Origin: a phage
Sequence record: PZ151149.1
DNA: 64,000 nt
Strand: one strand, 5' to 3'
Made by a program: the position numbers and the translations under genes. This document shows positions 3,457 through 57,210 of this stretch, piece after piece (within the stretch, counting starts at the first letter, position 1; each line of letters opens with the position of its first letter). The notes below the pieces were generated by a model. That model saw only the letters and a list, made by a program, of their open reading frames with translations, was not told the DNA's origin and made no database searches.

Positions 3457-3486
3457 TATTATGATATACACCCGATCTTATGTCAA
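3457..3486 (-). promoter_or_regulatory. sigma70-type early promoter cassette
   Basis: TTGACA (3486..3481), 17-18 nt spacer, CATAAT/ATAATA -10, then conserved UTR and AAGGAG SD. Confidence 0.6.
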
Positions 3487-3492
3487 CACTTT

Positions 3493-3771
3493 TTATAAAA
3501 TAATTTTTTGACATTTTTCTATGATGTTCGTGTAAGTCACATCAACCGCTAGCACCGTTGCTTCGAATCCACCGTTTAGCCAATGGCTATGATCTTTTTC
3601 GTCAAAGAAGCCGAGGCCAATACGAAGACCTTCCTTATATTCTGCGCGTACATTTAAATCATCGTCGATAAACAGATAAAACCATGAATTTTTACTAGGA
3701 TTGATGATACAACCTTTCAGATTAGGGAGAATATCACGACTAAGAATAAACTTATCACCTACTTTGAGCAT
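3493..3771 (-). CDS. small protein, HxHW/AVDV paralog family member A (93 aa)
   Basis: ATG at 3771 with GAGGAAA SD; C-terminal motif HSHWLNGGFEATVLAVDV shared with four neighbouring ORFs. Confidence 0.5.
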   Translation of the reverse strand: MLKVGDKFILSRDILPNLKGCIINPSKNSWFYLFIDDDLNVRAEYKEGLRIGLGFFDEKDHSHWLNGGFEATVLAVDVTYTNIIEKCQKIIL

Positions 3772-3785
3772 AATATTTTCCTCAC

Positions 3786-4094
3786 TTATAAAGTTTGACC
3801 GTTGTTTTTCGCGTAATGCTGAATGCGTGCTTGATCTGCTTCCGCTGGTGATAGATTCCATGCGATCACTACAACTTCTGACGCATCGTCATCCGTTTTT
3901 GATACCCAATGATTGTGATTCATACAATTGTTTGCTATCGCGTGAGCAAATGATCTCATTACCGGAGACGTATAATCATAGTAACGGATTTTCAGATTTT
4001 CATCAACGTACAAGTAGATCGTATACGGCTTATATTCAGTAACCAGTAACAGACAGTTACGCAATTCTGGGAAAATCTTTTTAGTTAATTTCAT
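3786..4094 (-). CDS. small protein, HxHW family member B (102 aa)
   Basis: ATG at 4094 with GAGGA SD directly after stop of upstream gene; motifs IYLYVDENLKIRYY and NHNHW. Confidence 0.5.
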   Translation of the reverse strand: MKLTKKIFPELRNCLLLVTEYKPYTIYLYVDENLKIRYYDYTSPVMRSFAHAIANNCMNHNHWVSKTDDDASEVVVIAWNLSPAEADQARIQHYAKNNGQTL

Positions 4095-4095
4095 T

Positions 4096-4314
4096 TTATA
4101 ATCCTCGGTCGCGGCTATAGTACACGGTACGCCATACAATTTCATGTTTCGTGTCGCTCCAGCACACGATCTCATTTACTCTTAAATCTTTGTTATCAAC
4201 AAAAGATGAACATTGTGACGCTTCTTTCATCATTTTATCTGCTGTTTTCTCATCAAATACAGCACAGATTTCTTTATACACTCGATAATCTTTGAATTGA
4301 CTCTGGATACCCAT
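4096..4314 (-). CDS. hypothetical small protein, FKDY/KMM paralog 1
   Basis: ORF in track; start uncertain (TTG 4335, ATG 4326 or ATG 4314); paralogous to 4274..4531. Confidence 0.4.
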   Translation of the reverse strand: MGIQSQFKDYRVYKEICAVFDEKTADKMMKEASQCSSFVDNKDLRVNEIVCWSDTKHEIVWRTVYYSRDRGL

Positions 4315-4531
4315 AATTAACACCATTCCAACCAATTGTTTTTGAGAAAACGTTTATCCACTGTTGAGTGTAACATGTTTCTTTCCATGATACAATACGA
4401 GTAGAATAATGGTTTTTGTTTCCAGAAAAGGACGGGCATTTTGATGCATCTTCCATCATCTTTTCGGCGAACTCTGGTTCGTATACTCGCAAGATCTGTT
4501 GATATGCTTTGTAGTCTTTAAATTTGCTCAT
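4274..4531 (-). CDS. hypothetical small protein, FKDY/KMM paralog 2 (85 aa)
   Basis: ATG at 4531; shares FKDYxxYxxI ... KMM(K/E)(E/D)AS(Q/K)C(S/P)SF with neighbour. Confidence 0.5.
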   Translation of the reverse strand: MSKFKDYKAYQQILRVYEPEFAEKMMEDASKCPSFSGNKNHYSTRIVSWKETCYTQQWINVFSKTIGWNGVNYGYPESIQRLSSV

Positions 4532-4808: not shown

Positions 4809-4988
4809 TTAGAAAGGGATGGTCATTTCTTGAGCTTGTACATTCTCGTTAGGATTAAACTTCATCCAACCGATATTGTCTACCAGCATATGTACATTTT
4901 TATCATATCCTACGTGAGTAGTCAACACTAAATGTGCTTTACCTTCAACGATGATTTCCATGTACTTCTGAACTTCGATAGCTTTCAT
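4809..4988 (-). CDS. hypothetical small protein (59 aa)
   Basis: Below track cutoff; ATG at 4988 follows conserved promoter/UTR/GGAGAA SD cassette; hand translation MKAIEVQKYMEIIVEGK... Confidence 0.45.
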   Translation of the reverse strand: MKAIEVQKYMEIIVEGKAHLVLTTHVGYDKNVHMLVDNIGWMKFNPNENVQAQEMTIPF

Positions 4989-5020
4989 TTTGATTCTCCG
5001 TTTGTTGTCTTGATGGGAGT

Positions 5021-5049
5021 ATCTTACTACTCCCTTTAATCATTGTCAA
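5021..5049 (-). promoter_or_regulatory. sigma70-type early promoter cassette
   Basis: TTGACA (5049..5044), 17 nt spacer, TAAGAT -10 (5026..5021). Confidence 0.6.
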
Positions 5050-5052
5050 CGA

Positions 5053-5220
5053 TTATTTGTTAATTTCCGGTGCGTTGCTTGGATAGTAGCCTTCTTTAAC
5101 ACCAAGATATTTTGCAACCATTCCGGTGATCTTCTGTGCTACTACGATATCGAATTTCAGGTAGTCTTCACCGTGGTTTGCTACAATGTATGCTTCGCAT
5201 TCTGCTTTAGTCTGGAACAT
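5053..5220 (-). CDS. hypothetical small protein (55 aa)
   Basis: ATG at 5220 with AGGAGA SD downstream of promoter cassette; track ORF 5053..5307 extends upstream through the promoter. Confidence 0.45.
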   Translation of the reverse strand: MFQTKAECEAYIVANHGEDYLKFDIVVAQKITGMVAKYLGVKEGYYPSNAPEINK

Positions 5221-5254
5221 TTTTGATTCTCCTATATCTCGTTGGTATGTGTGT

Positions 5255-5283
5255 AGTATAGGGGATCGGTGATCCCCTGTCAA
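5255..5283 (-). promoter_or_regulatory. sigma70-type early promoter cassette
   Basis: TTGACA (5283..5278), 17 nt spacer, TATACT -10. Confidence 0.55.
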
Positions 5284-5290
5284 CAACTTT

Positions 5291-5806
5291 TTATTCTTCA
5301 TCTTCATTTTTATCTTTATATGCGTACTTCATAAATTTGTCTGCTACTTTGTCCGCGTTTTCAGGTTCTACGTCTGACGCTAGGACAACAGCTAGTTCGG
5401 TTTTGTCGTTTCCATCATACCAATGATTATGAGTGTCGTTTTCTTCGATATAAAACGAATCAGTTGGAGCTGTGCGACAATATACGTCTAAATTACCATC
5501 GATATAAAAGATCCAATCCGAATACAAAATGATTGTTTTAGCCAGATTTTTATTGTCTCTTACAAAAGGTTCCGCGACAAATAGCTTAGTTTGTTCCATA
5601 ATATTTTCCTCAAAATTATACAGCTTCGTAAACTTCCCAATGTCAACACCAGCACGCTTAACGAAAAGGTTTTCTTTGATGTTATTCATAAACGTCTGGA
5701 TGGATTTAATGCGGTTGGAAGGTTTCCAGTCTTCGTTAGCATTGCGACGATACATCATGACATTACCAGTTTGCTTATATTCAGCAACCATTTTAAGACC
5801 ACACAT
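5291..5806 (-). CDS. small protein, HxHW family member D with N-terminal extension (171 aa)
   Basis: ATG at 5806 with GAGGA SD; motifs DWIFYIDGNLDVY and HNHWYDGNDKTELAVVLASDV. Confidence 0.55.
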   Translation of the reverse strand: MCGLKMVAEYKQTGNVMMYRRNANEDWKPSNRIKSIQTFMNNIKENLFVKRAGVDIGKFTKLYNFEENIMEQTKLFVAEPFVRDNKNLAKTIILYSDWIFYIDGNLDVYCRTAPTDSFYIEENDTHNHWYDGNDKTELAVVLASDVEPENADKVADKFMKYAYKDKNEDEE

Positions 5807-6483: not shown

Positions 6484-6663
6484 TTACATCACAATCACGC
6501 CAGCCGTAGAAAGTTGATGTTTCAACTGAGCATTTTCTGCTACCGTCAAATCAATGATTTCCTGTGACGCTGCAATCATATAGCCATTGGTGATATTGTT
6601 TTGCATCAGTTCAATGGTTTCTTCGTTGTAGCGGATTTTAGCGATGATTTCGTTGAAGTTCAT
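6484..6663 (-). CDS. hypothetical small protein (59 aa)
   Basis: Below track cutoff; ATG at 6663 follows promoter cassette and AGGAGA SD; hand translation MNFNEIIAKIRYNEETIELMQ... Confidence 0.45.
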   Translation of the reverse strand: MNFNEIIAKIRYNEETIELMQNNITNGYMIAASQEIIDLTVAENAQLKHQLSTAGVIVM

Positions 6664-6697
6664 GTTTGATTCTCCTAGTTCGTTTCGGTATGTGTGT

Positions 6698-6727
6698 ATT
6701 ATAGGGGAGTTTAACCTCCCCTGTCAA
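6698..6727 (-). promoter_or_regulatory. sigma70-type early promoter cassette
   Basis: TTGACA (6727..6722), 18 nt spacer, TATAAT (6703..6698). Confidence 0.6.
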
Positions 6728-6740
6728 CAACTTTTTTGAA

Positions 6741-7217
6741 TTATTTTTCTTGATGCTCGCGCTCGTACTTTTCGAAATAAAATTCTACTGGCTGATCGTG
6801 GATTGAAAGCAAGCCAAAGCGTTTAGCCGCACGTAATCCCATGTTACGTTGAATGTACTTCTGGAAGTTCTCGCGTATACACTTACGCCAGTATTCTAAG
6901 CCCATACAGCTTTTATAAAGATTGCATTGCACACACGCCGGATTCATGTTATCAAGTATATCATGTTCCGGTTTATGCATTCCTACAACCTTATACTTCC
7001 ACGATCCATCATCATTACGGGCAATTCGTCCATTTTCATCATAGACTACCTTTGAGCGTCGCAATACTGGTTTGATGTGGTCTGCGTGCCAGCGATCCCC
7101 TAGTTCCTCGCCACAATAGGCACAACGTCCACCATATTTCATTTTCAGGATCTGGCGTTGCTCTTTCTTTGACAATTTTTTAGGTTTAGGGGCTTTCGCC
7201 CCTTCATTATCACACAT
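6741..7217 (-). CDS. HNH endonuclease (158 aa)
   Basis: CAYCGEEL ... HADHIKP ... N ... CVQCN: His-Me finger with two CxxC pairs; overlaps ligase stop. Confidence 0.6.
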   Translation of the reverse strand: MCDNEGAKAPKPKKLSKKEQRQILKMKYGGRCAYCGEELGDRWHADHIKPVLRRSKVVYDENGRIARNDDGSWKYKVVGMHKPEHDILDNMNPACVQCNLYKSCMGLEYWRKCIRENFQKYIQRNMGLRAAKRFGLLSIHDQPVEFYFEKYEREHQEK

Positions 7218-9172: not shown

Positions 9173-9378
9173 TGAAACTAATCTCGCTAATCAGAGAGAA
9201 CGGATCATAATCGTCATTAGGAATATCGATAGTAATCGAATGAGGATTTACCCATACACCAAACTGGTCTTCATCGGTGAATACTTCGTTATGGATTTCG
9301 TGGATGTTTACATTCATAGTTTTCATAATAAAATTCCTTAATAATCAATAACTTACAAAATCATATAGCCAAAATATA

Positions 9379-14123: not shown

Positions 14124-14522
14124 TTAACTTTCCAGAATATCGCGAGCTTCGTTACGCTCCTTGATGATTTTCAGGATAAATTCCAGTTTTTCTTTGTTCA
14201 GTGTCCCGTTTTCCATTGCCTCTTTGACGGTGAACACTCCGCCACCTTGCCCGTATACAGTGACAGTGATTTCACCTAACATCGTGGTATGAAAACCGCC
14301 AATTTTCGGTGATTCGAAAGAAACAATTACCTCGCGAACAGTATTACCGTCGTTGATTTCTGAGAGGGTAATGTCGTTTTTGTAGGCGGTTGCTTTAACC
14401 ATACGGATCAGCATAGTCTGATCTGGGGAGATGGTCATTTTGTCCATTGCATGTTGCAATGCAGCGTAACCGAAAACTTTAACGAAGTCCAGAACGTCTT
14501 TGCGAGTTTGAAATTTAATCAT
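14124..14522 (-). CDS. hypothetical protein (132 aa)
   Basis: ATG at 14522 preceded by AAGGAG SD and promoter cassette. Confidence 0.5.
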   Translation of the reverse strand: MIKFQTRKDVLDFVKVFGYAALQHAMDKMTISPDQTMLIRMVKATAYKNDITLSEINDGNTVREVIVSFESPKIGGFHTTMLGEITVTVYGQGGGVFTVKEAMENGTLNKEKLEFILKIIKERNEARDILES

Positions 14523-14555
14523 CTTGATACTCCTTAGTTGTTTTGGTATGGGAGT

Positions 14556-14584
14556 ATCTTACTACTCCCGTGATATGCTGTCAA
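14556..14584 (-). promoter_or_regulatory. sigma70-type early promoter cassette
   Basis: TTGACA (14584..14579), 17 nt spacer, TAAGAT (14561..14556). Confidence 0.65.
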
Positions 14585-14592
14585 CTGCTTTT

Positions 14593-14742
14593 TTATGCAA
14601 CCGCAAACATCAACATTTGAACATTCTTGGCTGTCTGGCTTTCAAAGTTCTGACATTCTTTGATAATGTCCTCTACTTTCTCGCCGGAGATCTCCGCGTA
14701 AGTTTCGATTGCCATTTTCAGTACCGCGTCAAAGTTGTTCAT
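14593..14742 (-). CDS. hypothetical small protein (49 aa)
   Basis: Below track cutoff; ATG at 14742 after AAGGAGAA SD and promoter; hand translation MNNFDAVLKMAIETYAEISGEK... Confidence 0.4.
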   Translation of the reverse strand: MNNFDAVLKMAIETYAEISGEKVEDIIKECQNFESQTAKNVQMLMFAVA

Positions 14743-14780
14743 TTGATTCTCCTTAAAGTGTATTTCGTTTCGATGGGGGT

Positions 14781-14809
14781 ATATTACTACCCCCGTTATT
14801 CACTGTCAA
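14781..14809 (-). promoter_or_regulatory. sigma70-type early promoter cassette
   Basis: TTGACA (14809..14804), 17 nt spacer, TAATAT -10. Confidence 0.6.
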
Positions 14810-15028
14810 CTACTTTTTAATGACAAGTTCGAATTTTGCTACCTTGCGTCCTCGTTTATTGAAAGCAACCCACGGACGGTTTTCAATGTAGAACAACTCT
14901 TCACCTATAATGAATACTGGCTGATTGTAAAGGCGACCCATCAGGTCACGCTGGCGAATGGTAGTAGATTCGTATACTTCGCCTACTACAAAGTGTTTGC
15001 TGATAGAGTCGGTGCAAGTAAATTTCAT
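14810..15028 (-). CDS. hypothetical protein (72 aa)
   Basis: ATG at 15028 after GGAGAA SD and promoter cassette. Confidence 0.5.
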   Translation of the reverse strand: MKFTCTDSISKHFVVGEVYESTTIRQRDLMGRLYNQPVFIIGEELFYIENRPWVAFNKRGRKVAKFELVIKK

Positions 15029-15061
15029 TTTGATTCTCCTTTGTTTCGTTTCGATGGGAGT

Positions 15062-15090
15062 ATCTTACTACCCCCGTTATTCAGTGTCAA
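15062..15090 (-). promoter_or_regulatory. sigma70-type early promoter cassette
   Basis: TTGACA (15090..15085), 17 nt spacer, TAAGAT (15067..15062). Confidence 0.65.
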
Positions 15091-15097
15091 CTACTTT

Positions 15098-15316
15098 TTA
15101 CTTGTTGTATTCATTCCACCATTGGGTGAGCTTATCAATTATTTTTGTGTTTCTATCCAACTTCTCCCACCGTTTTCTAGGGTTTATCAACCGGAATAGG
15201 TAAGGTGTACTTGTTAAGTGAACTTGGTCAATGTAGTGATTGATGTACTGTTTTTCGATTCTAAGTTTCATCTTTTTACGATGAAAATATGCAATGACTT
15301 GTTCTTCTGTTTCCAT
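15098..15316 (-). CDS. hypothetical protein (72 aa)
   Basis: ATG at 15316 after GGAGGA SD and promoter cassette. Confidence 0.5.
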   Translation of the reverse strand: METEEQVIAYFHRKKMKLRIEKQYINHYIDQVHLTSTPYLFRLINPRKRWEKLDRNTKIIDKLTQWWNEYNK

Positions 15317-15340
15317 ATGTTCCTCCGTTTCGATGGGTGC

Positions 15341-15369
15341 ATTATGCTATACCACGATCCGATTGTCAA
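15341..15369 (-). promoter_or_regulatory. sigma70-type early promoter cassette
   Basis: TTGACA (15369..15364), 17 nt spacer, CATAAT (15346..15341). Confidence 0.6.
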
Positions 15370-15384
15370 CACCCAATAACAAAA

Positions 15385-15406
15385 AAGTCGCCACTATGGG
15401 CGACTT
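15385..15406 (-). terminator. rho-independent terminator after HAD-like gene
   Basis: AAGTCGCC-ACTATG-GGCGACTT stem followed on minus strand by UUUUUUGUUAUU; immediately upstream of next promoter. Confidence 0.55.
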
Positions 15407-15416
15407 TGAACAAACA

Positions 15417-15893
15417 TTAATCATGACCGTGATTTGCAATATCCGCTCGCGTCTTATCTTTGTGATTTCCTACGTCAAAGACACGATAACCATTTTCACG
15501 CAAAACTTTAATCACTTCTGGGTTATCCTCAAAGACTCCGACAACTTCATCTTTATCAAAGGATTTAATTACCTCTAATTTGATGTGATAGTCTTTACGG
15601 GAATCGGTACGGCCTCTCATAAAGATTTTATCAAAACACACCCCGTTAGAAATTAACCAATCAATTGTTTCCATGTAAGCATGTGAACTTCGTCCGGTGA
15701 GGATGTAAATCAAATGCCCGTTGTCGGAAAGAGCATTAATAACACGAATTACATCGTAAATGGGGGAATCTCCCCCACATGCCTTGTTATATTCGATCCA
15801 CGACTCGACTTTATCAAGATTTTCGGTTGGCATCTTCGCTAGTCGATGTGTTGGATCTGTGATCGTAAAATCTAAATCGACAAAATATATCAT
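15417..15893 (-). CDS. HAD-superfamily phosphatase-like protein (158 aa)
   Basis: N-terminal DxDxT motif (FVDLDFTITD); downstream of nrdB. Confidence 0.45.
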   Translation of the reverse strand: MIYFVDLDFTITDPTHRLAKMPTENLDKVESWIEYNKACGGDSPIYDVIRVINALSDNGHLIYILTGRSSHAYMETIDWLISNGVCFDKIFMRGRTDSRKDYHIKLEVIKSFDKDEVVGVFEDNPEVIKVLRENGYRVFDVGNHKDKTRADIANHGHD

Positions 15894-17943: not shown

Positions 17944-18110
17944 TATTCTACAACCTCAAAACATTTATCATCAGGAAGAATAGCCCATTCTATGCCGTAT
18001 TCATCCTCAACGTAGTAGCAAGTCCCGTCATGTCGAGCATCATATACATCACCAACAACAAAGCTATCAGCTAGCTCAAAATCTACAGCAACACATTTTA
18101 ATTTGGTCAT
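17943..18110 (-). CDS. hypothetical small protein (55 aa)
   Basis: Internal ATG at 18110 with GAGGA SD; track ORF 17943..18173 starts inside the upstream hairpin. Confidence 0.35.
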   Translation of the reverse strand: MTKLKCVAVDFELADSFVVGDVYDARHDGTCYYVEDEYGIEWAILPDDKCFEVVE

Positions 18111-18147
18111 AATAAAATCCTCACTTGTTTTTGATGGTTGTATTATA

Positions 18148-18165
18148 GCGGGGATTTCTCCCCGC
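18148..18165 (-). other. GC-rich stem-loop downstream of nrdA (no clear U-tract)
   Basis: GCGGGGA-TTTC-TCCCCGC. Confidence 0.3.
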
Positions 18166-18178
18166 GTCAACACTTATT

Positions 18179-20422
18179 TTACAGCTTGCAAGATGAGCAC
18201 TCGCTAGCGTCTTCCGTACCATCTGCACCATCACGCACGTTAGCGTAATACAGGGTTTTCAGACCGTAATATTGAGCAAACAGCATATCATCTAACACAT
18301 CAGCAATATCGACTTTACCAGTCTTATAAGTGCTTGGATCATAGGATGTATTGGAACTAATCGCCTGATCCACAAACTTCTGCATGATCGCTGCCAGTGT
18401 CAGATAAGGCTTGTTACCTTTCTTGATCAGTGTCCAAAGCAGGTCAATAACATCAGCATTATTCTCTACGTTCGGAATAACCTGATTAAATTGCCCTTCT
18501 TTCGATCCTTTAACCGATACAATCCCGCGAGGCGGTTCAATACCGTTTGTGCTGTTAGATACCTGAGAAGACGACTCACACGGCATCAGCGCCGAAAGTG
18601 TACTGTTACGAATGCCATATTTTTTCAGGTCTTCGCGCAGTTCTTCCCAATCCATCTCATACACCGGATCAACCAGTTCATCTACTGTCTTTTTGTACCA
18701 GTCGATAGGCAGTTCACCGCGACCATAACGTGTTTCGTGCATCAGTTCGCAAGCACCCTTCTCTTTTGCTAGTTGCACACTAGCCTTAATCAGAGCATAT
18801 TGCAAGCGTTCAAACGTTTTATGCGTAAACTCGTTAGCGTCTTCATATGTGAAGAAATTATCCGCGAGATACGATGCAAAGTTAGTCACGCCAACACCCA
18901 GAGAGCGACGTTTTTTGGCTGTCAGAGCTTGTTCTACTGGATAATCCTGGTAATCTAACAAGTTGTCAAGCGCACGCACCATAACCATAGCAATGCGTTC
19001 TACTTCTTCCATGTTTTCGATATCGAAATTACCTAAAACATATGCTGCCAAAGTGCATAGACTGATCTCTGAATCATCACGACCCATCGGTTTTGTCGGC
19101 AGAGCAATTTCACAACACAGGTTAGATTGTTTAATCGGTGCTACATTACGAATAAACGCCCCGTGATTGTTCATGTTGTCTGTGAACGCTGGATAGATTC
19201 GACCAGTGTTAAAACGTTCAATTGCCACCGCTAAAAACAGGTCTTCGGCTTTAACACGAGTTTTACGAACACTCGGATCTTTTTCCAGTTTTTCGTAAAG
19301 CTGGCGGAAACCTTCCTCATCTCGGAAGTACAGATCCCACAACAAGCCACCTGCAACATCTGGACTAAACAGAGTAATGTAATCCCGTTTAAGGAATCGC
19401 TCTACCATCAGGTTATTAATCTGTACGCCGTAATCAAGATGACGAATGCGGTTATCTTCCACCCCCTTATTGTTCTTCAACACAATAAGACTTTCAAACT
19501 CTAAATGCCACATTGGGTAATAGAGAGTCGCCGCCCCGCCACGAATACCGCCTTGCGAGCATGACTTAACGGCAGTCTGAAAATGTTTCCAGAATGGGAT
19601 AACGCCAGTATGACGAACTTCACCATGCCCGATCTTAGATCCTTCCGCGCGAATCATGCCAGCGTTGATACCGATACCAGCACGCTTGCTAATATACTTG
19701 ATGATTGCATTTGCTGTTTCGTTGATGCCCTGCAATGAGTCATCACTTTCAATCACCACACACGAACTAAATTGGCGTGTTGGGGTACGCACACCTGCCA
19801 TAATCGGAGTAGGCAGAGAGATTTGCTTATTCGCAACAGCATTATAAAAATCAATCACATGTTCAAGTCGATTTTCTGTCTCTTCTTGATGCAAGCACAT
19901 ACCGATCAGCATATACGCAAATTGCGGTGTTTCAATGATTTTCTTAGTGCTGCGATCCTGAACAAGATATTTCTCTTTTAACTGCATCGCACCAGCATAG
20001 GTCATTTTAAAATCAAGTTTATGGTCGATGAATTTCTCCAGATATTCCACTTCTTCACGGGAATACTTTTGCAGAATTTCACGATCATATTTTCCGGTTG
20101 CAATATTACGCTCAATATGGCTGTAAAAATCAATCGGTTGGAATTGACCGTATACTGATTTACGAAGCGCGAACATTGCAAGGTTACTTGCTACATATTG
20201 ATAATCAGGTGTTTCTACAGTAATGTTATCTGCTGCGACCTTAATCAATACTTTCTGGATATCATTGGTAGACATACCTTCTGTCAGAAGTGGTTCAACC
20301 ATATCAAACAATTCATATGGATCAACGTTATGACCTTCGGCTGCCGCTTCCAGAATTTTCATTACTTTTTCTTTTTCAAACGGAACAGTCAGACCGGAAG
20401 ACTTAACAACATTTTTAATCAT
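18179..20422 (-). CDS. nrdA: ribonucleotide reductase large subunit
   Basis: 747 aa; active-site NLCCEI; C-terminal redox tail ECSSCKL; GAGGT SD. Confidence 0.9.
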   Translation of the reverse strand: MIKNVVKSSGLTVPFEKEKVMKILEAAAEGHNVDPYELFDMVEPLLTEGMSTNDIQKVLIKVAADNITVETPDYQYVASNLAMFALRKSVYGQFQPIDFYSHIERNIATGKYDREILQKYSREEVEYLEKFIDHKLDFKMTYAGAMQLKEKYLVQDRSTKKIIETPQFAYMLIGMCLHQEETENRLEHVIDFYNAVANKQISLPTPIMAGVRTPTRQFSSCVVIESDDSLQGINETANAIIKYISKRAGIGINAGMIRAEGSKIGHGEVRHTGVIPFWKHFQTAVKSCSQGGIRGGAATLYYPMWHLEFESLIVLKNNKGVEDNRIRHLDYGVQINNLMVERFLKRDYITLFSPDVAGGLLWDLYFRDEEGFRQLYEKLEKDPSVRKTRVKAEDLFLAVAIERFNTGRIYPAFTDNMNNHGAFIRNVAPIKQSNLCCEIALPTKPMGRDDSEISLCTLAAYVLGNFDIENMEEVERIAMVMVRALDNLLDYQDYPVEQALTAKKRRSLGVGVTNFASYLADNFFTYEDANEFTHKTFERLQYALIKASVQLAKEKGACELMHETRYGRGELPIDWYKKTVDELVDPVYEMDWEELREDLKKYGIRNSTLSALMPCESSSQVSNSTNGIEPPRGIVSVKGSKEGQFNQVIPNVENNADVIDLLWTLIKKGNKPYLTLAAIMQKFVDQAISSNTSYDPSTYKTGKVDIADVLDDMLFAQYYGLKTLYYANVRDGADGTEDASECSSCKL

Positions 20423-22972: not shown

Positions 22973-23004
22973 AATATAATCCTCTCTTTATTTCGATATG
23001 TGCA

Positions 23005-23442
23005 TTATACTTTGATTCTTACAAACTTGCAACCTAATTCTTTTTCAATTTGTTTCTGGCGCTCTATGTCCTGAGTAATTTTGTATTTGTGTTCCGGTTC
23101 GTCGATTTCATAAGCAACGTTATTAACCGGATCATAACCATCAATTCTATACCCCAATATAGGGTATTGTCGTTTTAATTTTATATTCAAAAGCTGTTCT
23201 ATTGTGTCTAGTGCAATCTTTTCGGCAGCTGATAATCCAAAACGTATTCCAAAATATTGTTTCCTCACCGCTTCCGCAAGTTCTTCTGTTAAAATTATTT
23301 GCTTCTGTTTTCTACCATACACATCAAAATATTCACTATAATCATAACACAGACCTGTGTTTCTTGCAACCTTTTTTATGTCTCTAGTTACATTGGCATG
23401 ACGTTTATTAAATTCTTTCGCAATATCCAGTGAGCTAATCAT
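23005..23442 (-). CDS. Rha-like N-terminal domain fused to PD-(D/E)xK-type endonuclease-like C-terminus (145 aa)
   Basis: N-terminus SSLDIAKEFNKRHANVTRDIKK resembles phage Rha regulatory domain; C-terminus GYRIDGYDPVNNVAYEIDEPEH ... GCKFVRIK resembles DUF559-type nuclease fold. Confidence 0.5.
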   Translation of the reverse strand: MISSLDIAKEFNKRHANVTRDIKKVARNTGLCYDYSEYFDVYGRKQKQIILTEELAEAVRKQYFGIRFGLSAAEKIALDTIEQLLNIKLKRQYPILGYRIDGYDPVNNVAYEIDEPEHKYKITQDIERQKQIEKELGCKFVRIKV

Positions 23443-23469
23443 TTTATCCTCCGTTGCTTAGATGAGTGT

Positions 23470-23497
23470 ATTATACATTACCACATCATCATGTCAA
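23470..23497 (-). promoter_or_regulatory. probable early promoter
   Basis: TTGACA (23497..23492), 16 nt spacer, TATAAT; followed by GGAGGA SD and ATG at 23442. Confidence 0.45.
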
Positions 23498-23559
23498 CAC
23501 CTTTTTCATAAAATTTTAGGCAATAAAAAAGCCTCCCCGAAGGAAGGCTTTAAAATTCA

Positions 23560-42068: not shown

Positions 42069-42869
42069 TTAACCCTTCTTATATTCGCAAACATATTGAG
42101 TACCATAATCATAGCTAATGCGGCCTTTCTCGATGACCTCAAAGCGGATTTCATCGTTTTCCCCTACCCACATTTTGTACTCGTTGAAGTATCCTGCTAC
42201 ATCCGGTTTGCTCATACCAACAACCATATTTTTATATTGTTTGCTGCGTGTCAGATTTGATTTAAACACTTCGCGCTCATCAACATATACGAAAGAAGAC
42301 AATTCACCTTCGGTCATGGTCATTTTCAGCTTGCCGCCCTTGTTACCATAAGTAGAGTTGCCATACAATGGATCTTTGCGGCTGTCTGTTTCAATACCAT
42401 CAATGATTTTCCATGTAAATTTTGCAATGCACTGATAAGTGATAGATCCAGAGATTTTCTCTTCTTTCTTCTGTTCTTCCACCACTTTTTCTTCCTGTTT
42501 CGGTTGTTCTTCTTCAACCTTCGCAGAAGTCTCTGAATCGCTTTCTGACTCGGTTTCTTCTTTAGGTAATACATTCATCAAGTTTTGGATTTGAGCGTTG
42601 TATACAGCCTCCAGTGGCTGAATCTGCCCGATATTGATCATTGTATCACGAACAGTTTTATTCCAGTTGCGTTGCTCTTGTTTCAGAGACGGATCAATCT
42701 TAACAGCTTGAACATATACTTCATGAAGTTTAGAATCCAGTGCGGAGATAGACTCATTAGCACAAATAAACTTCTCTGATTTGGTAGTGGCTTTAGCGCA
42801 ATCAAAGGACGCAGCGTTAGCACCGAAAGCAGTAGCAGAAAGAACGATAGCAGCGATAATGTTTTTCAT
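42069..42869 (-). CDS. secreted LprI/DUF1311-like protein (266 aa)
   Basis: Signal peptide MKNIIAAIVLSATAFGANA; then FDCAKATTKSEKFICANESISALDSKLHEVY resembling the lysozyme-inhibitor LprI N-terminal domain; acidic linker; own promoter. Confidence 0.55.
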   Translation of the reverse strand: MKNIIAAIVLSATAFGANAASFDCAKATTKSEKFICANESISALDSKLHEVYVQAVKIDPSLKQEQRNWNKTVRDTMINIGQIQPLEAVYNAQIQNLMNVLPKEETESESDSETSAKVEEEQPKQEEKVVEEQKKEEKISGSITYQCIAKFTWKIIDGIETDSRKDPLYGNSTYGNKGGKLKMTMTEGELSSFVYVDEREVFKSNLTRSKQYKNMVVGMSKPDVAGYFNEYKMWVGENDEIRFEVIEKGRISYDYGTQYVCEYKKG

Positions 42870-42902
42870 AATATATTCCTCAATGTTTTTCTTGATGGGA
42901 GT

Positions 42903-42931
42903 ATCTTACTACTCCCTTAATCCGGTGTCAA
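42903..42931 (-). promoter_or_regulatory. sigma70-type early promoter cassette
   Basis: TTGACA (42931..42926), 17 nt spacer, TAAGAT (42908..42903). Confidence 0.65.
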
Positions 42932-42938
42932 CTACTTT

Positions 42939-43151
42939 TTAATTTTTACCCGCTCGTGCATTAATACGCATTTTCTGCATAGCCATGATCTGGTTTACTG
43001 CTTCTTCTTTACGTTCTTGCGTGATAACGTGACCAGATTCCGCAAACTCTCCAGAGACCTCTTCCACGATCTCGCGAACTTGAGAACGTCCAAAGATGCG
43101 GTTTCCTTCGTAGCTCATAAACTCTGTTACTACTTGCTCGATAGATTTCAT
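42939..43151 (-). CDS. hypothetical protein (70 aa)
   Basis: ATG at 43151 after GGAGAA SD and promoter cassette. Confidence 0.5.
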   Translation of the reverse strand: MKSIEQVVTEFMSYEGNRIFGRSQVREIVEEVSGEFAESGHVITQERKEEAVNQIMAMQKMRINARAGKN

Positions 43152-43180
43152 GTGATTCTCCTTTCGTTTGGTATGGGAGT

Positions 43181-43209
43181 ATCTTACTACTCCCGTTTCT
43201 TTACGTCAA
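43181..43209 (-). promoter_or_regulatory. sigma70-type early promoter cassette
   Basis: TTGACG (43209..43204), 17 nt spacer, TAAGAT (43186..43181). Confidence 0.6.
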
Positions 43210-43216
43210 CTGGTTT

Positions 43217-43732
43217 TTAGAAATTTTTCGCTTCTTCTTCGGTCATCATAACCGCGCATTCGTGCATAACTTTGAAAACCGGATCAATCATGTCGAATGC
43301 TTCGCGAGACAGTTTACGAGAAGCGATTTTGATTGCTTCAACGTCTTCTACTACAGGAACAAAAACAGTTTTCAGTTCATCGAGCACGGCAGCTTCTTTT
43401 TCATTCAGGAAGATTCCAGCGTCGTACAGTGCAACTTCGATAACATTAACTTTAACCATTTTTATTTCCTCCAGTTCGTTTCGGTATGGGAGTATAATAC
43501 TACCGATGACCTTTGGCGTCAACTGCTTTTTATTATTTTCGTGAAAATTTTTCGTTGCCTCTAGGTTCTTTTCGACCTTCATCCATTCCGCGTATTCTTG
43601 CGCGGCTACTTTCGGATTTAGTCCGTCTTCGTACATTGCTTCAAGTAATTCTTCGTCGGTGGGCTTATACCCTAAATAAGCCTCCACCTGATTTTTCCAA
43701 ATTTTATACCAGTTCATATTATCACCAATCAA
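43217..43732 (-). CDS. hypothetical ORF (171 aa) containing an internal promoter; C-terminal 81 aa probably also made separately from ATG 43459
   Basis: Continuous ORF; promoter/UTR/GGAGGAAATAAAA SD cassette lies in-frame at 43465..43522 just before internal ATG (MVKVNVIEVALYDAG...). Confidence 0.4.
   Translation of the reverse strand: MIGDNMNWYKIWKNQVEAYLGYKPTDEELLEAMYEDGLNPKVAAQEYAEWMKVEKNLEATKNFHENNKKQLTPKVIGSIILPYRNELEEIKMVKVNVIEVALYDAGIFLNEKEAAVLDELKTVFVPVVEDVEAIKIASRKLSREAFDMIDPVFKVMHECAVMMTEEEAKNF
43494..43522 (-). promoter_or_regulatory. sigma70-type early promoter cassette inside ORF 43217..43732
   Basis: TTGACG (43522..43517), 17 nt spacer, TATTAT -10. Confidence 0.55.
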
Positions 43733-43994
43733 GAGCGCGTGTCTCTGCGTCTTCCCATGCTTGATTCATAACAGCATTGAAAACATATTCTAAAGTATCA
43801 TCTTTAGAGAATCCGAAGATTTTAGACGGAATATCTTCAATTGCTACTCCCGCAACTTCTGCATTACGTGCTTGGCAATAATGCAACTCTAAGTTATCGA
43901 GATAGCGACCGCCTAATTTCTCCATATCATCCCAGCATTTCCAGTAACCTACTTTATTTGCAATTGCTAACACTTTGCTGTTTTCGTTGCTCAT
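43722..43994 (-). CDS. hypothetical protein (90 aa)
   Basis: ATG at 43994 after GGAGAA SD and promoter cassette. Confidence 0.5.
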   Translation of the reverse strand: MSNENSKVLAIANKVGYWKCWDDMEKLGGRYLDNLELHYCQARNAEVAGVAIEDIPSKIFGFSKDDTLEYVFNAVMNQAWEDAETRALDW

Positions 43995-44026
43995 CTTTGA
44001 TTCTCCTGTTGTTTCGGTATGGGAGT

Positions 44027-44055
44027 ATTATGCGGTGCTGGATTATGGAAGTCAA
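44027..44055 (-). promoter_or_regulatory. sigma70-type early promoter cassette
   Basis: TTGACT (44055..44050), 17 nt spacer, CATAAT. Confidence 0.55.
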
Positions 44056-44104
44056 CAACTTTTTAAAATAAAAAGCCGACCACAAGGATCGGCTTAATAA
44101 TCAG

Positions 44105-44500
44105 TTACTTACTAAATTTCTTTTTGGCTTCGTCTACTGCATGAGATGCTAGTACCGCTGCCGCATGTGCACTTTTATCTGTGTTGCAGAGAACACCCAG
44201 ATAAACATCACGCCAAAGTTTAATCATCTCATAGATCATATCAATATCATTTTCTTGTTTGTTGGTGATGCTATTCGTTGTTATCTGGTAAGGTAACGGC
44301 TTAATCTGTACTGGTTCCGCCATCGGGCTACTCGGTTTCGGATCAGTCATAATAGGTGCTGTTGTGTGTGGTGTTTTCCATACGCCATTATTCCACGGTT
44401 TAATCGTTGTATCGTAAAGTTTATAAGGATTTTTGTCTGGGTCAACCATCCATGCATGATGAGTACCCAAACCATTTGAAGTGATGCGTCGTTCAGTCAT
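44105..44500 (-). CDS. hypothetical protein (131 aa)
   Basis: ATG at 44500; proline-rich middle. Confidence 0.5.
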   Translation of the reverse strand: MTERRITSNGLGTHHAWMVDPDKNPYKLYDTTIKPWNNGVWKTPHTTAPIMTDPKPSSPMAEPVQIKPLPYQITTNSITNKQENDIDMIYEMIKLWRDVYLGVLCNTDKSAHAAAVLASHAVDEAKKKFSK

Positions 44501-46753: not shown

Positions 46754-46761
46754 TATGTTGA

Positions 46762-50878: not shown

Positions 50879-51096
50879 TTTGATTCTCCTTTGTTACTAG
50901 ATAACGAATTTGGTCTTGCATTGCAATCAGTTCCCAGCGTGCTACTTTCATCATGGAAACTGTCTCTTTGAACATAATATTAGCCCTTTCCTTCTCTCCT
51001 GTCAAGTAGATTTCTGCAATTTTTTTCACAAAATTTTTGGGTTTCTTCATTCTTAAACGGTTTCATATAAGTCAACCTTTTGTTTTCGATGGGGAT

Positions 51097-51125
51097 ATTA
51101 TGCTATATCCCCGATCTGGTGTCAA
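51097..51125 (-). promoter_or_regulatory. sigma70-type early promoter cassette
   Basis: TTGACA (51125..51120), 17 nt spacer, CATAAT; a second TTGACA at 51005..51000. Confidence 0.5.
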
Positions 51126-51134
51126 TAACTTTTT

Positions 51135-51434
51135 TTAATCTTTTTTCAGTGCATCCATTACTCGCTCTGCGATCAGTTCTCTTAAGCACTGATAACCATG
51201 ATATTTGATGGCAATGTCACGCAGATCATTAACCAGTTCCCGTACTTCATGGTCTTTCAAATCGTCTCTGTATTTCGATTTAACCGTGTCTTTAGGTGGA
51301 TTGCGGATAACCTGAAAACCTTGTTCTGCAATCACTGCGGCTTCTCGCTGACGTTCATGCTGTACGGTGTTTTTGATCAGGTCCGCTTCCATGAACTTTG
51401 CCATGCTCATCATCATGTTATTCTTTTTGCTCAT
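51135..51434 (-). CDS. hypothetical protein (99 aa)
   Basis: ATG at 51434 with GAGGA SD (track ORF begins at 51470). Confidence 0.45.
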   Translation of the reverse strand: MSKKNNMMMSMAKFMEADLIKNTVQHERQREAAVIAEQGFQVIRNPPKDTVKSKYRDDLKDHEVRELVNDLRDIAIKYHGYQCLRELIAERVMDALKKD

Positions 51435-51501
51435 TATTAAATCCTCATAAAAGAAAAGGGAGACTCCCATTATAGAGAATCTCCCTTGTATGTCAAGTGT
51501 T

Positions 51502-53325: not shown

Positions 53326-53424
53326 TATTAAACCTCTTCATAACATAACCATAACTTACTGCAACCGCCACAAAGACGGCTGCAACAATCATATTAAAAA
53401 TTGAGTGATTGTCAAGTATATGAC

Positions 53425-53598
53425 TCATGACACGCGCACATTTTTATCATAATACCCGCCATTAATCCCGCGCGGGGCAGTTAATCCCTGTTTACATTCT
53501 TTCCCACATTCAGGACATTCTGCCTTTTCACGCTCGGAAATTTTGCGGATTTTCTGAAATTGACCGTGTTCTTCACAAGAATAATCATATAATGGCAT
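53425..53598 (-). CDS. FmdB-type zinc-ribbon protein (57 aa)
   Basis: MPLYDYSCEEHGQF ... CPECG: CxxC-type ribbon; ATG at 53598 overlapping dexA stop. Confidence 0.45.
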   Translation of the reverse strand: MPLYDYSCEEHGQFQKIRKISEREKAECPECGKECKQGLTAPRGINGGYYDKNVRVS

Positions 53599-53599
53599 A

Positions 53600-54512: not shown

Positions 54513-54513
54513 A

Positions 54514-54681
54514 TCAAAAACCTCGCTTAGTGAAATGCTCGATCATTTTATTGATACATGCAGCTTCACTATCGCCGGACACGTTCCAGCCGTATAGACC
54601 CCATCTAAAGCACATGGTAACAGTTCCATTGTGACGGCTTACCGTCACATCATTAAATTCTGGGATACTTCGCATAATCAT
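54514..54681 (-). CDS. hypothetical small protein (55 aa)
   Basis: Below track cutoff; MIMRSIPEFNDVTVSRHNGTVTMCFRWGLYGW...; GAGGA SD. Confidence 0.35.
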   Translation of the reverse strand: MIMRSIPEFNDVTVSRHNGTVTMCFRWGLYGWNVSGDSEAACINKMIEHFTKRGF

Positions 54682-54691
54682 AATAATTTCC

Positions 54692-56083
54692 TCAAATATA
54701 GTCTACTCGATACCTCGCACGGGTAACACCCACATATAATAACTGCATTGCCAATTCAAAGTCAACATTGTCTGTACACATGCAAGGAGTATACAGGAAC
54801 ACGCGGTCTACGCTGATCCCTTGTGACTTATGAATGGTGCAAGCTGGTAATGCTTTTACATTCAAGAACATACGCTTCATCGTCCAGAATGAATCCCAAT
54901 CTGGTTTAAATTTTGGATTCTCTTTCTTCATTTCGCGATATTGTCCGGCGACCGTATTCAGATAGATAGAGAAAATGTTCTTCTGACGTTGTTCTGTCAG
55001 AATGTTGATTTCTACTAAATCCGGTTTATCTGTAGTGATTCCGACTGCATCTAAACCGACTTTCTGATTTAGGATTTCTTTGTCTTCGTCATCATCGACG
55101 CTTTCCACTTTCAGAGTATAGCCTAAAACTGGTTGCGGATCGACCCCCGTGCAACGTAATATAAATTCACGCGGGATGACCTCTTTAACTCGGATCATCT
55201 CACCATTGTTAAAAATAACATTGGGAATCTTCTTCCCGCGTTCATCTCGCAGATATTCGATCAATGGTTCCTGAGTAACCAGAATTTCATCTACAATCAC
55301 TGGTTCATCGGTGTTATAAACGCGCTTACGTACAATTTCATTGAGTTTTTCGACGCTCTTGTTAGTGTAGGCCAGAATACGGTTTTCTAGAAGGTCTTCC
55401 GGCGTTTTAACGGTTTCGAAATAATGCTTCATAAATTCCGGCAGAGTTGAGCTATGGAATACACCCTCGTTACCGCACTGCTTTTCGAATACCCATTTAC
55501 CGTTACGGACAGCGGTCGCCACATCAATGATCGGTGCATTAGATCGTTTAATTTCTGTCAACTCCACGTTTTGAAAATTTTCATCCGTGAAGAAAGGAGA
55601 AATTGACGTTGCACCGCTCGGATCAACTGGTCGTAACTGGTGCGGATCGCCAACTGCAATAACAACAATTCGACCGTTGATACTCTTCATGAGAATATCA
55701 AATAACTTCTTATCGACCATACTCGCTTCATCAACAATGATGATCTGAACATCATCTAGCTTAGGAGTATCTTTTTGCTCAAATACTTGAGTATCTTCAT
55801 AGTTGGTCGGGTTTAGTCGCAGTAGTGCATGTAAAGTAAATGCTTGACGACCTACCGCTTTACTCAAAACTTTTTTAGCTTGGTGGGTAGGCGTTGCCAA
55901 AACCACACCAGTTACACCACGGCGGACCATTTCCTGAACAATGAATTTCATCATTGCGGTTTTACCAGTACCCGCCGCACCACGGACAGTTGTATGCTTC
56001 TTTTGTTCAATGCGTTTCATTAGAACATCAAAAGCATGTTTTTGCCCGTCTGTCAACATATCGAAAGTTAATACTCTGCTCAT
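54692..56083 (-). CDS. dda: Dda-type SF1 DNA helicase
   Basis: 463 aa; Walker A GAAGTGKT, Walker B IIVDEASM; position next to dexA. Confidence 0.8.
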   Translation of the reverse strand: MSRVLTFDMLTDGQKHAFDVLMKRIEQKKHTTVRGAAGTGKTAMMKFIVQEMVRRGVTGVVLATPTHQAKKVLSKAVGRQAFTLHALLRLNPTNYEDTQVFEQKDTPKLDDVQIIIVDEASMVDKKLFDILMKSINGRIVVIAVGDPHQLRPVDPSGATSISPFFTDENFQNVELTEIKRSNAPIIDVATAVRNGKWVFEKQCGNEGVFHSSTLPEFMKHYFETVKTPEDLLENRILAYTNKSVEKLNEIVRKRVYNTDEPVIVDEILVTQEPLIEYLRDERGKKIPNVIFNNGEMIRVKEVIPREFILRCTGVDPQPVLGYTLKVESVDDDEDKEILNQKVGLDAVGITTDKPDLVEINILTEQRQKNIFSIYLNTVAGQYREMKKENPKFKPDWDSFWTMKRMFLNVKALPACTIHKSQGISVDRVFLYTPCMCTDNVDFELAMQLLYVGVTRARYRVDYI

Positions 56084-56397
56084 TATCCTAAAATCCTCAC
56101 CTTGCGAACACAGATAGTATTGAGTTCTCGCCGTACCCGTTCTTTTTCATATTCAGGAATTTTATATTCGATACCATCCCGAACAATTTCAGAAGACCGG
56201 ATTATGCCAAATTTTCGTTTAGGTACAACCTTGTATTTCGGTTCACCTGCCAATAGACTCTCACAATAATCTATCTGATCACACATTGACGCTAACGCAG
56301 CATCATGTGTTTCGCAAGTTAGGACGCGACCTTTCGCGTCCACTGAGTATTGAAAGAATCCGTCTTTATCACGATAACATACAGCAAATACATGCAT
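56083..56397 (-). CDS. hypothetical protein (104 aa)
   Basis: ATG at 56397, stop overlaps dda start. Confidence 0.45.
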   Translation of the reverse strand: MHVFAVCYRDKDGFFQYSVDAKGRVLTCETHDAALASMCDQIDYCESLLAGEPKYKVVPKRKFGIIRSSEIVRDGIEYKIPEYEKERVRRELNTICVRKVRILG

Positions 56398-57152
56398 TAT
56401 AAACCTACCTTCGCTTTCATCAATTCAATCCACGACGCATCAATCGGAAGCCCGTATTTCACGCGTTCTTTTTGTGCTGGCGTTAAGTTCTCATACTTAG
56501 AAAGAGATTCAATCAAAACGCTGGTATATTTTAGCACGATTTCGGTATTGTTTGCAATAGCCTTAAGTTTTTCTTCTTTCTTGTTGATTTCGCTAAGGGC
56601 TTGCTTGAGATCTGCAATTTTCTGATAACGTTCTTCCATACGGAAGAGAGTATTTTTAATCGCTCTCTCGGCTGCCTCTGCTTTCTCCGGTTCGTTGTGC
56701 TTTTTGTGGCGCTCGATTGCTAATTTCTTTTCTTCGATTGCCATTTCCTGATTTTTGATGCGATTCTCGTTAAGTTCGATCCACTCGATGTACTTCGCAC
56801 GTAGGGCAATTTCATCATCAGAAAGTTTACCGTTAGTTCCTAGTTCCTGGATCTCTTTAAGAGATTCGATAGTGTGATTACCACGGAAAGAATTGTATTT
56901 CAGTTTAACTGGAATCACATTGCCATCAACATATCCCAGATTGCAATCAATACGCTCTAAGGAGAGTCCATCATCACCTTCACCAAACTCCTCACCTGAA
57001 TATGCGCAATGAGTCTGGCGATAGATGTTACGCACAGTGACTAAGCTCATAGAGAAGTCTTTGTTACGACGAGAAGCGCCAGCCATGATAGAGTTCAGAC
57101 GGAAAACAACCAGCGCCAATTCTTCGTTAGATTTAAAAGCAAACAGTTTCAT
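56397..57152 (-). CDS. hypothetical protein with C-terminal coiled coil (251 aa)
   Basis: ATG at 57152 after GGAGAA SD and promoter; C-terminal heptad-rich region. Confidence 0.5.
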   Translation of the reverse strand: MKLFAFKSNEELALVVFRLNSIMAGASRRNKDFSMSLVTVRNIYRQTHCAYSGEEFGEGDDGLSLERIDCNLGYVDGNVIPVKLKYNSFRGNHTIESLKEIQELGTNGKLSDDEIALRAKYIEWIELNENRIKNQEMAIEEKKLAIERHKKHNEPEKAEAAERAIKNTLFRMEERYQKIADLKQALSEINKKEEKLKAIANNTEIVLKYTSVLIESLSKYENLTPAQKERVKYGLPIDASWIELMKAKVGL

Positions 57153-57180
57153 AATTGATTCTCCTTAGTTGGTATGTGTG

Positions 57181-57210
57181 TATTATTGTCTATCTGGTTT
57201 GTGTTGTCAA
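57181..57210 (-). promoter_or_regulatory. sigma70-type early promoter cassette
   Basis: TTGACA (57210..57205), 17-18 nt spacer, AATAAT/ATAATA -10. Confidence 0.55.

Follow-up and report, generated by a model that had tools for sequence, protein, structure and literature searches.

A short intergenic module recurs on the minus strand of a 64,000-nucleotide stretch of phage DNA (sequence record PZ151149.1; hereafter the window, with positions counted from its first letter), where it joins a promoter to a leader, a Shine–Dalgarno (SD) sequence and a start codon. This module is very probably the promoter-early stem-loop (PeSL) element of RB49-like phages, and the combined promoter, insulator and recombination mechanism that has been proposed for PeSLs is part of that identification. 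Published work and database annotation already cover this element. An earlier note on this DNA had read the module as an early sigma-70 promoter with its 5′ untranslated region (UTR) and SD, a reading that fits the sequence and agrees with experiments on the same elements in RB49 and phi1 (PMC2839356).

In those two phages, a PeSL opens with a stop codon that lies in an AT-rich tract, carries consensus σ70 boxes and ends with an SD sequence and a start codon (Arbiol et al. 2010, PMC2839356). Its stem-loop is often polyG/polyC and has five possible positions, the commonest being between the boxes or across the −10. Each genome (~164 kb) has 51–52 PeSLs, mainly before ORFans in hyperplastic regions, and the ORFans that differ between RB49 and phi1 are PeSL-flanked. 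Promoter activity was found for two PeSLs, with most clones carrying down-mutations in the −35 or −10 and one wild-type promoter clone giving ~13,000 Miller units; one PeSL hairpin cut downstream lacZ expression as strongly as rrnB T1; and inverse PCR yielded mini-circles with crossovers between the −10 and the SD or ATG (all PMC2839356). The concept was later applied to two more pairs, T4/PST and KVP40/nt-1 (Comeau et al. 2014, PMC4122927).

The window itself belongs among these phages. Megablast searches with three window stretches against the phage collection gave 92–97% identity, over most of the length, to ~59 Krischvirus genomes; close relatives include RB49, JSE, ECD7, the Makalu phages and pEJ01, and no record was identical. 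The gene order runs from alt, DNA ligase, nrdAB, td and gene 32 through the tail-fibre genes (plus strand, 28–40 kb) to rIIA/B, topoisomerase, dda, srd, primase and helicase, and all early and middle genes lie on the minus strand, in agreement with the GC skew. Judged from its sequence, the window comes from another isolate of Krischvirus (RB49-like, T4-type coliphages) with its own set of cassettes. A blastn search with one 90-nt copy of the module gave 554 places, spread over 59 records that are all Krischvirus-type, with 7–12 places per record among those listed. Such sites already carry annotation in public records, in GEC-3S as promoter/−35/−10 and in Makalu as terminator and ribosome-binding site (RBS).

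Copy number and anatomy of the module

A profile hidden Markov model was made from the 15 copies first listed and run on both strands of the window and then on nine homologous loci from RB49, JSE, pEJ01, FL04, MIZ4, LF73P4, Skers and SSG23, which are the comparison set used throughout. All 15 coordinates given in the earlier note proved to be real copies (E 1e-10 to 1e-17, minus strand only), each coordinate falling, to within 1 nt, on the last base of a minus-strand −10 hexamer. A 16th copy, absent from that list, was recovered as a profile match at 18103-18181 (E 9e-6), and the profile found no comparable copy on the plus strand of the window. Across the window and the nine loci there were 123 profile copies, 109 of them distinct, and every one lay on the transcribed strand. 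The density here is 16 strict plus ~5 loose copies per 64 kb, and three clusters hold four copies each (3.4-6.7 kb, 14.5-15.4 kb and 42.9-44.1 kb).

Within its 70–90 nt, the module runs from an upstream stop codon in an A-tract through GTTGACA, a 17-nt spacer and CATAAT, TATAAT or TAAGAT to AC.C.CAT, an A/C-rich leader, GGAGAATCAAA and the ATG. The consensus over the 109 distinct copies is aAAAAgttGTTGACa, a 17-nt spacer (present in 91 of them), tAtaAT and then ACaCcCAT, and AAAAAG precedes the −35 in most copies. The −35 had been given as TTGAC(A/G) with a 17-nt spacer. That spacer holds for 14 of the 16 window copies, the others having 18 nt (copy 6727) and 16 nt (copy 23497; copies are named here by their −35 coordinate), and TTGACT also occurs, so that all 16 read TTGAC(A/G/T). 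The TAAGAT- and CATAAT-type −10 hexamers described previously are both present, beside TATAAT, TATACT, TAATAT, TATTAT and AATAAT; every copy has A at position 2 and T at position 6. Each copy continues into an SD and then an ATG, as had been stated, with the ATG 53-67 nt past the −35. A stop codon stands 3-16 nt before the −35 in 13 of the 16 copies (12 TAA, one TAG), so the element occupies the entire intergenic gap (61-84 nt).

The copies do share a leader; it is not one fixed string but a family of variants (ATACCGAAACGAAC, ATCGAAACGAAA, ATCAAGACAAC and ATACCAAC). The leader 16-mer CCCATACCGAAACGAA occurs six times with up to three mismatches, compared with 0.46 expected. The text of PMC2839356, the only PeSL paper text-searched for these terms, mentions neither the AC.C.CAT start region nor the leader variants, nor 'leader', 'UTR' or RegB.

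Downstream lie, as the earlier note had it, mostly tiny genes of unknown function: 12 of the 16 open reading frames (ORFs) have at most 90 aa, 13 match only PHROGs of unknown function and one more matches none. Two ORFs depart from this pattern: one (56397-57152) encodes an Srd-like anti-sigma factor, and another, of 145 aa, has an N-terminus with weak Ant/Rha-like similarity. A generic low-stringency promoter scan did not rise above chance (66 sites versus 57 ± 7 in shuffles), and only its high-scoring class with a 17-nt spacer on the minus strand stood out. Scanning the whole window with Rfam gave no match at gathering score, which is expected because this is a DNA/promoter element.

An inverted repeat in the promoter

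The earlier note had missed a GC-rich inverted repeat of 6–8 bp, which lies in the spacer or across the −10 in 11 of the 16 copies; the hairpin is one of the features that define a PeSL. These embedded hairpins fold with minimum free energies (MFEs) of -11 to -19 kcal/mol; the z score is -1.4 at copy 15090 and ranges from -2.1 to -5.4 at the other ten. In three copies (15369, 23497 and 44055) an upstream hairpin with a T-run takes the place of the embedded one, and T-runs are found only at these upstream hairpins (15384-15407, ~23520-23545 and ~44065-44090). Among 92 distinct copies from the window and six of the relatives' loci, 60 (65%) have a perfect stem of at least 6 bp between the −35 and +10, compared with 5% of shuffles, and both arms differ in at least seven variants of the stem.

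We also considered G·U pairs as a sign that the repeat acts as sense-strand RNA. This indicator failed: with terminal extensions counted, the antisense strand more often had the longer stem (49 versus 7). Internal mismatches favour the sense strand (five G·T versus no A·C), from only two loci and too few to rely on.

The strict copies, all on the minus strand (−), are as follows.

3419..3495 (−): stop TAA 3493-3495; −35 at 3481-3486; −10 CATAAT at 3458-3463; predicted +1 at 3451; 8-bp hairpin GGGTGTAT-atcata-ATACACCC across the −10; SD GGAGTATCAAA; ATG 3419-3421; 70-aa ORF
4986..5055 (−): −35 at 5049; hairpin GGGAGTA-gtaaga-TACTCCC across TAAGAT (z -4.8); SD GGAGAATCAAA; 59-aa ORF
5218..5293 (−): −35 at 5283; spacer hairpin GGGGATC-acc-GATCCCC (z -3.6); −10 TATACT; 55-aa ORF
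6661..6743 (−): −35 at 6727; 18-nt spacer with hairpin GGGGAG/CTCCCC; −10 TATAAT; 59-aa ORF
14520..14595 (−): −35 at 14584; hairpin GGGAGTA/TACTCCC; SD GGAGTATCAAG; 132-aa ORF
14740..14812 (−): −35 at 14809; hairpin GGGGGTA/TACCCCC; 49-aa ORF (14593-14742)
15026..15100 (−): −35 at 15090; hairpin GGGGGTA/TACTCCC with one G·U pair; 72-aa ORF
15314..15419 (−): upstream-hairpin subclass; terminator-like AAAGTCGCC..GGCGACTTTTTT at 15384-15407; −35 at 15369; −10 CATAAT; 72-aa ORF
18108..18181 (−): the 16th copy; −35 TTGACG at 18170; spacer hairpin GCGGGGA-gaaa-TCCCCGC (z -5.4); −10 TATAAT; SD GAGGATTTTATT; 55-aa ORF, downstream of nrdA
23440..23562 (−): upstream hairpin and T-run (GCCTTCC..GGGAGGCTTTTTT, ~23520-23545); −35 at 23497; 16-nt spacer; −10 TATAAT; SD GGAGGATAAAA; 145-aa ORF
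42867..42941 (−): −35 at 42931; hairpin GGGAGTA/TACTCCC; SD GAGGAATATATT; 266-aa ORF
43149..43219 (−): −35 TTGACG at 43209; hairpin GGGAGTA/TACTCCC; 70-aa ORF
43457..43535 (−): decayed 5′ hairpin arm; −35 TTGACG at 43522; −10 TATTAT; exact leader CCCATACCGAAACGAA; 80-aa ORF
43992..44107 (−): upstream hairpin and T-run (AGCCGATC..GGTCGGCTTTTT, ~44065-44090); −35 TTGACT at 44055; −10 CATAAT; 90-aa ORF
51048..51137 (−): −35 at 51125; 8-bp hairpin GGGGATAT/ATATCCCC across CATAAT (z -4.0); weak SD; small ORF, start uncertain (51063 or 51050)
57150..57216 (−): no hairpin; −35 at 57210; −10 AATAAT; SD GGAGAATCAAT; precedes the Srd-like anti-sigma factor gene 56397-57152

PeSL copies as sites of exchange

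It had been suggested that the repeated leader or cassette is a recombination substrate for the shuffling of small genes. This is the published PeSL model, and both an enrichment of homology breakpoints and the presence of chimeric copies agree with it here; the published crossover interval of the mini-circles, from the −10 to the SD or ATG, is the very 'leader' that the earlier note had named. The ends of homology between the window and the nine relatives' loci form 41 clusters, 10 of which fall inside the 16 PeSLs (2.2% of the window; binomial P ~2e-8, a value that is indicative only, since the clusters are partly dependent on one another and the whole window, not just intergenic DNA, served as the null). 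One such breakpoint is at 5052, in copy 4986..5055. Two further clusters lie at looser sites that combine a promoter with a hairpin.

At four PeSLs, adjoining high-scoring segment pairs overlap in the window (3440–3495, 6679–6754, 42929–42949 and 43991–44028), indicating that one window copy matches both of the copies that flank extra DNA in a relative. That extra DNA amounts to ~1.9–4.3 kb at the first of these copies, a cassette of ~320-400 bp (~750 bp in JSE) at the second, 209-493 bp at the third and 237 bp, in LF73P4 and SSG23, at the fourth. Copy 3486 is chimeric: its left half is that of the distal PeSL of pEJ01, RB49 and MIZ4 and its right half that of their proximal PeSL, with the crossover between the −10 and the leader (...ACACCCAT|ACC). 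Copy 6727 is likewise chimeric, with its crossover in AAAAAGTTGTTGACAGGGGA. The reverse arrangement is seen in JSE, whose single copy (JSE 19569) consists of the left half of window copy 14809 and the right half of window copy 14584; the 49-aa ORF at 14593–14742 is therefore a cassette present here and absent from JSE, with 14520..14595 as its right boundary. At site 23497, four phages have four different contents: nothing, the 145-aa ORF, an endonuclease or another ORF.

Weighing the explanations

The columns best kept across the copies are the −35, the −10 and the SD, as would be expected of any strong early promoter with its RBS. The copies could on that ground be independent strong promoters that converged on the sigma-70 consensus, with no common origin and no role in recombination, but we give this explanation almost no weight. 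Positions outside the consensus are kept as well, namely the G before TTGACA, the upstream AAAAAG, AC.C.CAT, the leader variants and AATCAAA after GGAG; the chimeric copies and overlapping homology ends represent real exchange between copies; and the 554 places of the 90-nt copy are all in Krischvirus-type phages (59 records). A different alternative concerns the inverted repeat, which might be a DNA operator and not an RNA hairpin, with a dimeric protein of the phage or host binding there either to silence early promoters or to recombine at them. The repeat does overlap the −10 or fill the spacer, the usual place for a repressor to bind; GGGG...CCCC is common to most stems, and a specific binding protein has been the subject of speculation (PMC2839356); and the hairpin lacks the T-run of an intrinsic terminator. 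However, pairing is kept although the stems differ in sequence, in loop length (3-6 nt) and in where they lie relative to the promoter, as would be expected of a structure more than of a fixed recognition sequence. All five internal non-Watson–Crick pairs, from two loci only, are G·T on the sense strand and none is A·C, and a PeSL hairpin alone lowered downstream lacZ expression (PMC2839356). We regard an operator as unlikely.

Several observations weigh against the PeSL account. A literature search for transcription-start mapping in Krischvirus returned nothing relevant. Two of the 16 copies (43522 and 57210) have no hairpin, and the embedded hairpins are followed by 0-3 T in the next 8 nt, with no T-run, and drew no call from a terminator scan; lacking a U-tract, their role as terminators here depends on one published lacZ assay of another copy. 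With respect to recombination, the breakpoint probability is subject to the dependence and the broad null given above, and the direction of each indel (insertion or deletion) is not readable from the comparison. There are also indels unlinked to PeSLs, at three homing/HNH endonuclease ORFs (17053–17592, minus strand; 24595–25191, minus strand; 57837–58766, plus strand), and homing-endonuclease insertions are a second, unrelated source of variation.

A MITE (miniature inverted-repeat transposable element) or transposon reading was considered separately and rejected: the copies are without terminal inverted repeats or target duplications, share one orientation and all lie exactly between genes.

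A model for the PeSL cassettes

Under the PeSL account, host sigma-70 RNA polymerase would initiate early transcription at the A of CAT, 7 nt past the −10. The seventh base after the −10 is this A in all 16 copies, and the start is predicted there on that basis; together with the near-consensus hexamers, we infer that CAT is the start site. The predicted starts on the minus strand are 3451, 5014, 5248, 6691, 14549, 14774, 15055, 15334, 18135, 23463, 42896, 43174, 43487, 44020, 51090 and 57175. The leader of 18-40 nt, A/C-rich and unstructured, would then expose the GGAG of the SD and allow efficient translation of the small gene. Consistent with this prediction, the leader plus the first 12 nt of the ORF folds with MFEs of 0 to -3.4 kcal/mol and z scores that are mostly positive (weaker than shuffles), which implies an exposed SD and leaves no RNA motif to model.

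Because the hairpin lies upstream of the predicted start, it would be transcribed only in read-through RNA from the upstream gene, which fits the published attenuator/terminator role. In such RNA, the hairpin would stand ~25 nt past the upstream stop codon and, we infer, attenuate or terminate the transcript, thereby insulating the cassettes from one another. Finally, the 70-100 nt common to copies in the same orientation could act as patches for unequal exchange by the phage's homologous recombination. Units of leader, ORF and stop codon would in this way be deleted, inserted or swapped and a chimeric PeSL left behind, an outcome that the comparison of loci shows here, mini-circles having been demonstrated by experiment in PMC2839356.

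A candidate RegB target in the SD box

Beyond its role in translation, the SD box GGAGAATCAAA may also be a target for RegB/S1 that switches off the cassette genes after the early period. This proposal adds to the PeSL model, and we put it forward tentatively, as a possibility that falls a little short of probable. The T4 RegB/S1 site is a single-stranded GGAGRAYARAA, and the cleavage sites of RB49 follow the same pattern (PMC1702504); the regB of RB49 itself has diverged, and its own SD is cut in vivo (PMC3014915). As in the PeSL box, GGAG in T4 sites leads into 7 A-rich nt, and the site lies in single-stranded intergenic RNA next to the AUG of an early gene. The earlier note had offered, as an alternative, that the repeated leader could be a shared regulatory target; the leader is predicted to lack structure, but its SD box resembles such a RegB/S1 site.

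The PeSL box agrees with the T4 consensus at 10 of 11 positions. The exact box is found in 53 of the 109 distinct copies, and six of the 16 window copies match at 10 of 11 positions. At a threshold of at least 9 of 11, 12 of the 16 PeSL-led genes match, compared with 5 of the 84 other genes in the window, and GGAG is present in the SD of 13 of 16 PeSL-led genes versus 22 of 84 others; because the copies have a common ancestry, however, these ratios make them look more independent than they are. No structure is predicted in the leaders, and a RegB homologue is encoded by the Krischviruses ECD7 (42% identity, E 4e-25) and AV108 (41% identity, E 1e-24). On the other side, position 8 of the PeSL box is C, and in T4 sites it is one of the most conserved A positions. 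An A-rich spacer after GGAG would simply be good for translation initiation as well. Moreover, regB was not found in this window, and the specificity of RB49 RegB is known for few sites only. If the proposal is true, any gene that enters a PeSL slot would inherit a programme of early-on (sigma-70) and early-off (RegB inactivation) expression, a modest addition that would not amount to a new kind of system.

Many genes without a PeSL in front use the RBS GAGGATTATATTATG instead. A second conserved RBS box, GAGGAT(T/A)ATATTATG, lacks GGAG and recurs at many genes that are not PeSL-led (gene starts at 10587, 22972, 41763, 50400, 63605, 5806, 18110 and others). The two RBS classes may separate PeSL-led early genes from the rest.

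Looser sites, remnants and neighbouring features

About five looser sites combine a promoter with a hairpin (−35 at 1071, 5884, 51496, 53415 and 57779). The following sites include three of these and one remnant.

1008..1091 (−): looser site; TTGACT, 17 nt, TATACT; hairpin GGGGCTAG..CTAGCCCC, then GTTTTC
51428..51501 (−): looser site; TTGACA, 16 nt, TATAAT; stem GGGAGA/TCTCCC around the −10, then TTTTCTTTT; homology breakpoint at 51496
57715..57785 (−): looser site; TTGACA, 17 nt, TATTAT; hairpin GCCTCC..GGAGGC, TTTTTT; left edge of the window-specific insertion 57782-59186
22990..23010 (−): PeSL remnant; −10 and leader only (GTATAATGCACATATCGAAAT), at the end of the 145-aa ORF, forming the downstream junction of that cassette

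MIZ4 has a full PeSL at this place, and the remnant is identical to the matching part of it. The looser promoter at 53415 lies in a 274-bp gap (53326-53599, minus strand) that holds a small CxxC...CxxC ORF, annotated as an FmdB-like regulator in SSG23; after this ORF come TTGACA at 53415, TATGAT and a hairpin, GCAGCCGTC..GGCGGTTGC. The gene at 50684-50878 (minus strand) has a PeSL-type RBS, GGAGAATCAAAATG, without an upstream promoter or hairpin, and may mark where a cassette boundary once lay within the operon that PeSL 51125 leads. GC-rich hairpins also stand in six gaps on the minus strand (3141-3208, 9327-9408, 20423-20490, 46717-46761, 61829-61878 and 63606-63660). They include GGGGC..GCCCC, GGCGGGA..TCCCGCC and GGGGGC..GCCCCC and have a T-rich tail in most cases and a sigma-70 promoter in none, and so look like plain terminators or hairpin-only relatives of PeSLs.

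There are other variable segments as well. At 43460-43721 (minus strand), 262 bp have no convincing ORF, and four relatives are ~160 bp longer there, with small genes annotated; the window therefore probably carries a deletion that truncates a small gene. Breakpoints at 43558-43574 lie just upstream of PeSL 43522. A block of small ORFs downstream of the holin gene (40509-42099) has 87-91% identity to relatives, compared with 95-98% in its flanks, and is flanked by non-homologous gaps (40221-40509 and 42099-42468), making it a further hyperplastic segment, one with borders other than strict PeSLs. The endonuclease ORF 57837-58766 lies on the opposite strand between modB-like and dCTPase genes, inside the window-specific segment 57782-59186, and is absent from all four right-side relatives compared.

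Implications

For modular phage evolution, Botstein and Campbell are said to have proposed 'linker' sequences, and PeSLs are among the clearest examples of such linkers, each being a regulatory element that doubles as a swap site for accessory genes. Recognition of PeSLs helps the annotation of Krischvirus genomes because they mark early transcription units, and it explains differences in small-ORF regions between therapeutic phages that are otherwise near-identical. For engineering, PeSLs are natural insertion slots with strong promoters, which are probably toxic when cloned. The known picture of PeSLs is unchanged; nine newer loci extend the two-genome observation of 2010 and show that the mechanism is still operating. 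What the present analysis gains is the correct name for the module, the hairpin that had been missed, renewed confirmation, from several genomes, that shuffling is PeSL-bounded, and the RegB lead.

Comparison with known systems

The PeSLs of RB49 and phi1 and the module in the window come from the same genus and share one layout, with a GGGG..CCCC stem-loop in the spacer, across the −10 or upstream. Both precede ORFans in hyperplastic regions at comparable density, indels between relatives are bounded by copies in both cases, and we see no essential difference between them.

Similar elements border variable small genes elsewhere. The PeSL-like elements of T4/PST and KVP40/nt-1 and the repeats at the internal-protein loci of T-even phages (Repoila 1994, as cited in PMC2839356) are also composite promoter/stem-loop linkers that have been proposed to serve modular exchange. 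According to PMC2839356, however, these are analogues and not homologues, with T4-type early promoters and stems that are AT-rich and weaker.

Integron gene cassettes (attC sites, circular intermediates) likewise move as single-gene circles that enter conserved sites, a comparison made in PMC2839356. Unlike integron cassettes, each PeSL unit carries its own promoter, and exchange apparently proceeds by general homologous recombination on patches of ~50-100 bp. To our knowledge, no site-specific recombinase or integrase serves PeSL exchange. The morons of lambdoid phages resemble PeSL cassettes in that an accessory gene with its own promoter and terminator is inserted between resident genes. 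Morons (Hendrix et al. 2000) reportedly have no conserved flanking linkers and are thought to arrive through illegitimate recombination. By contrast, in a PeSL the regulatory sequence itself is the recombination site.

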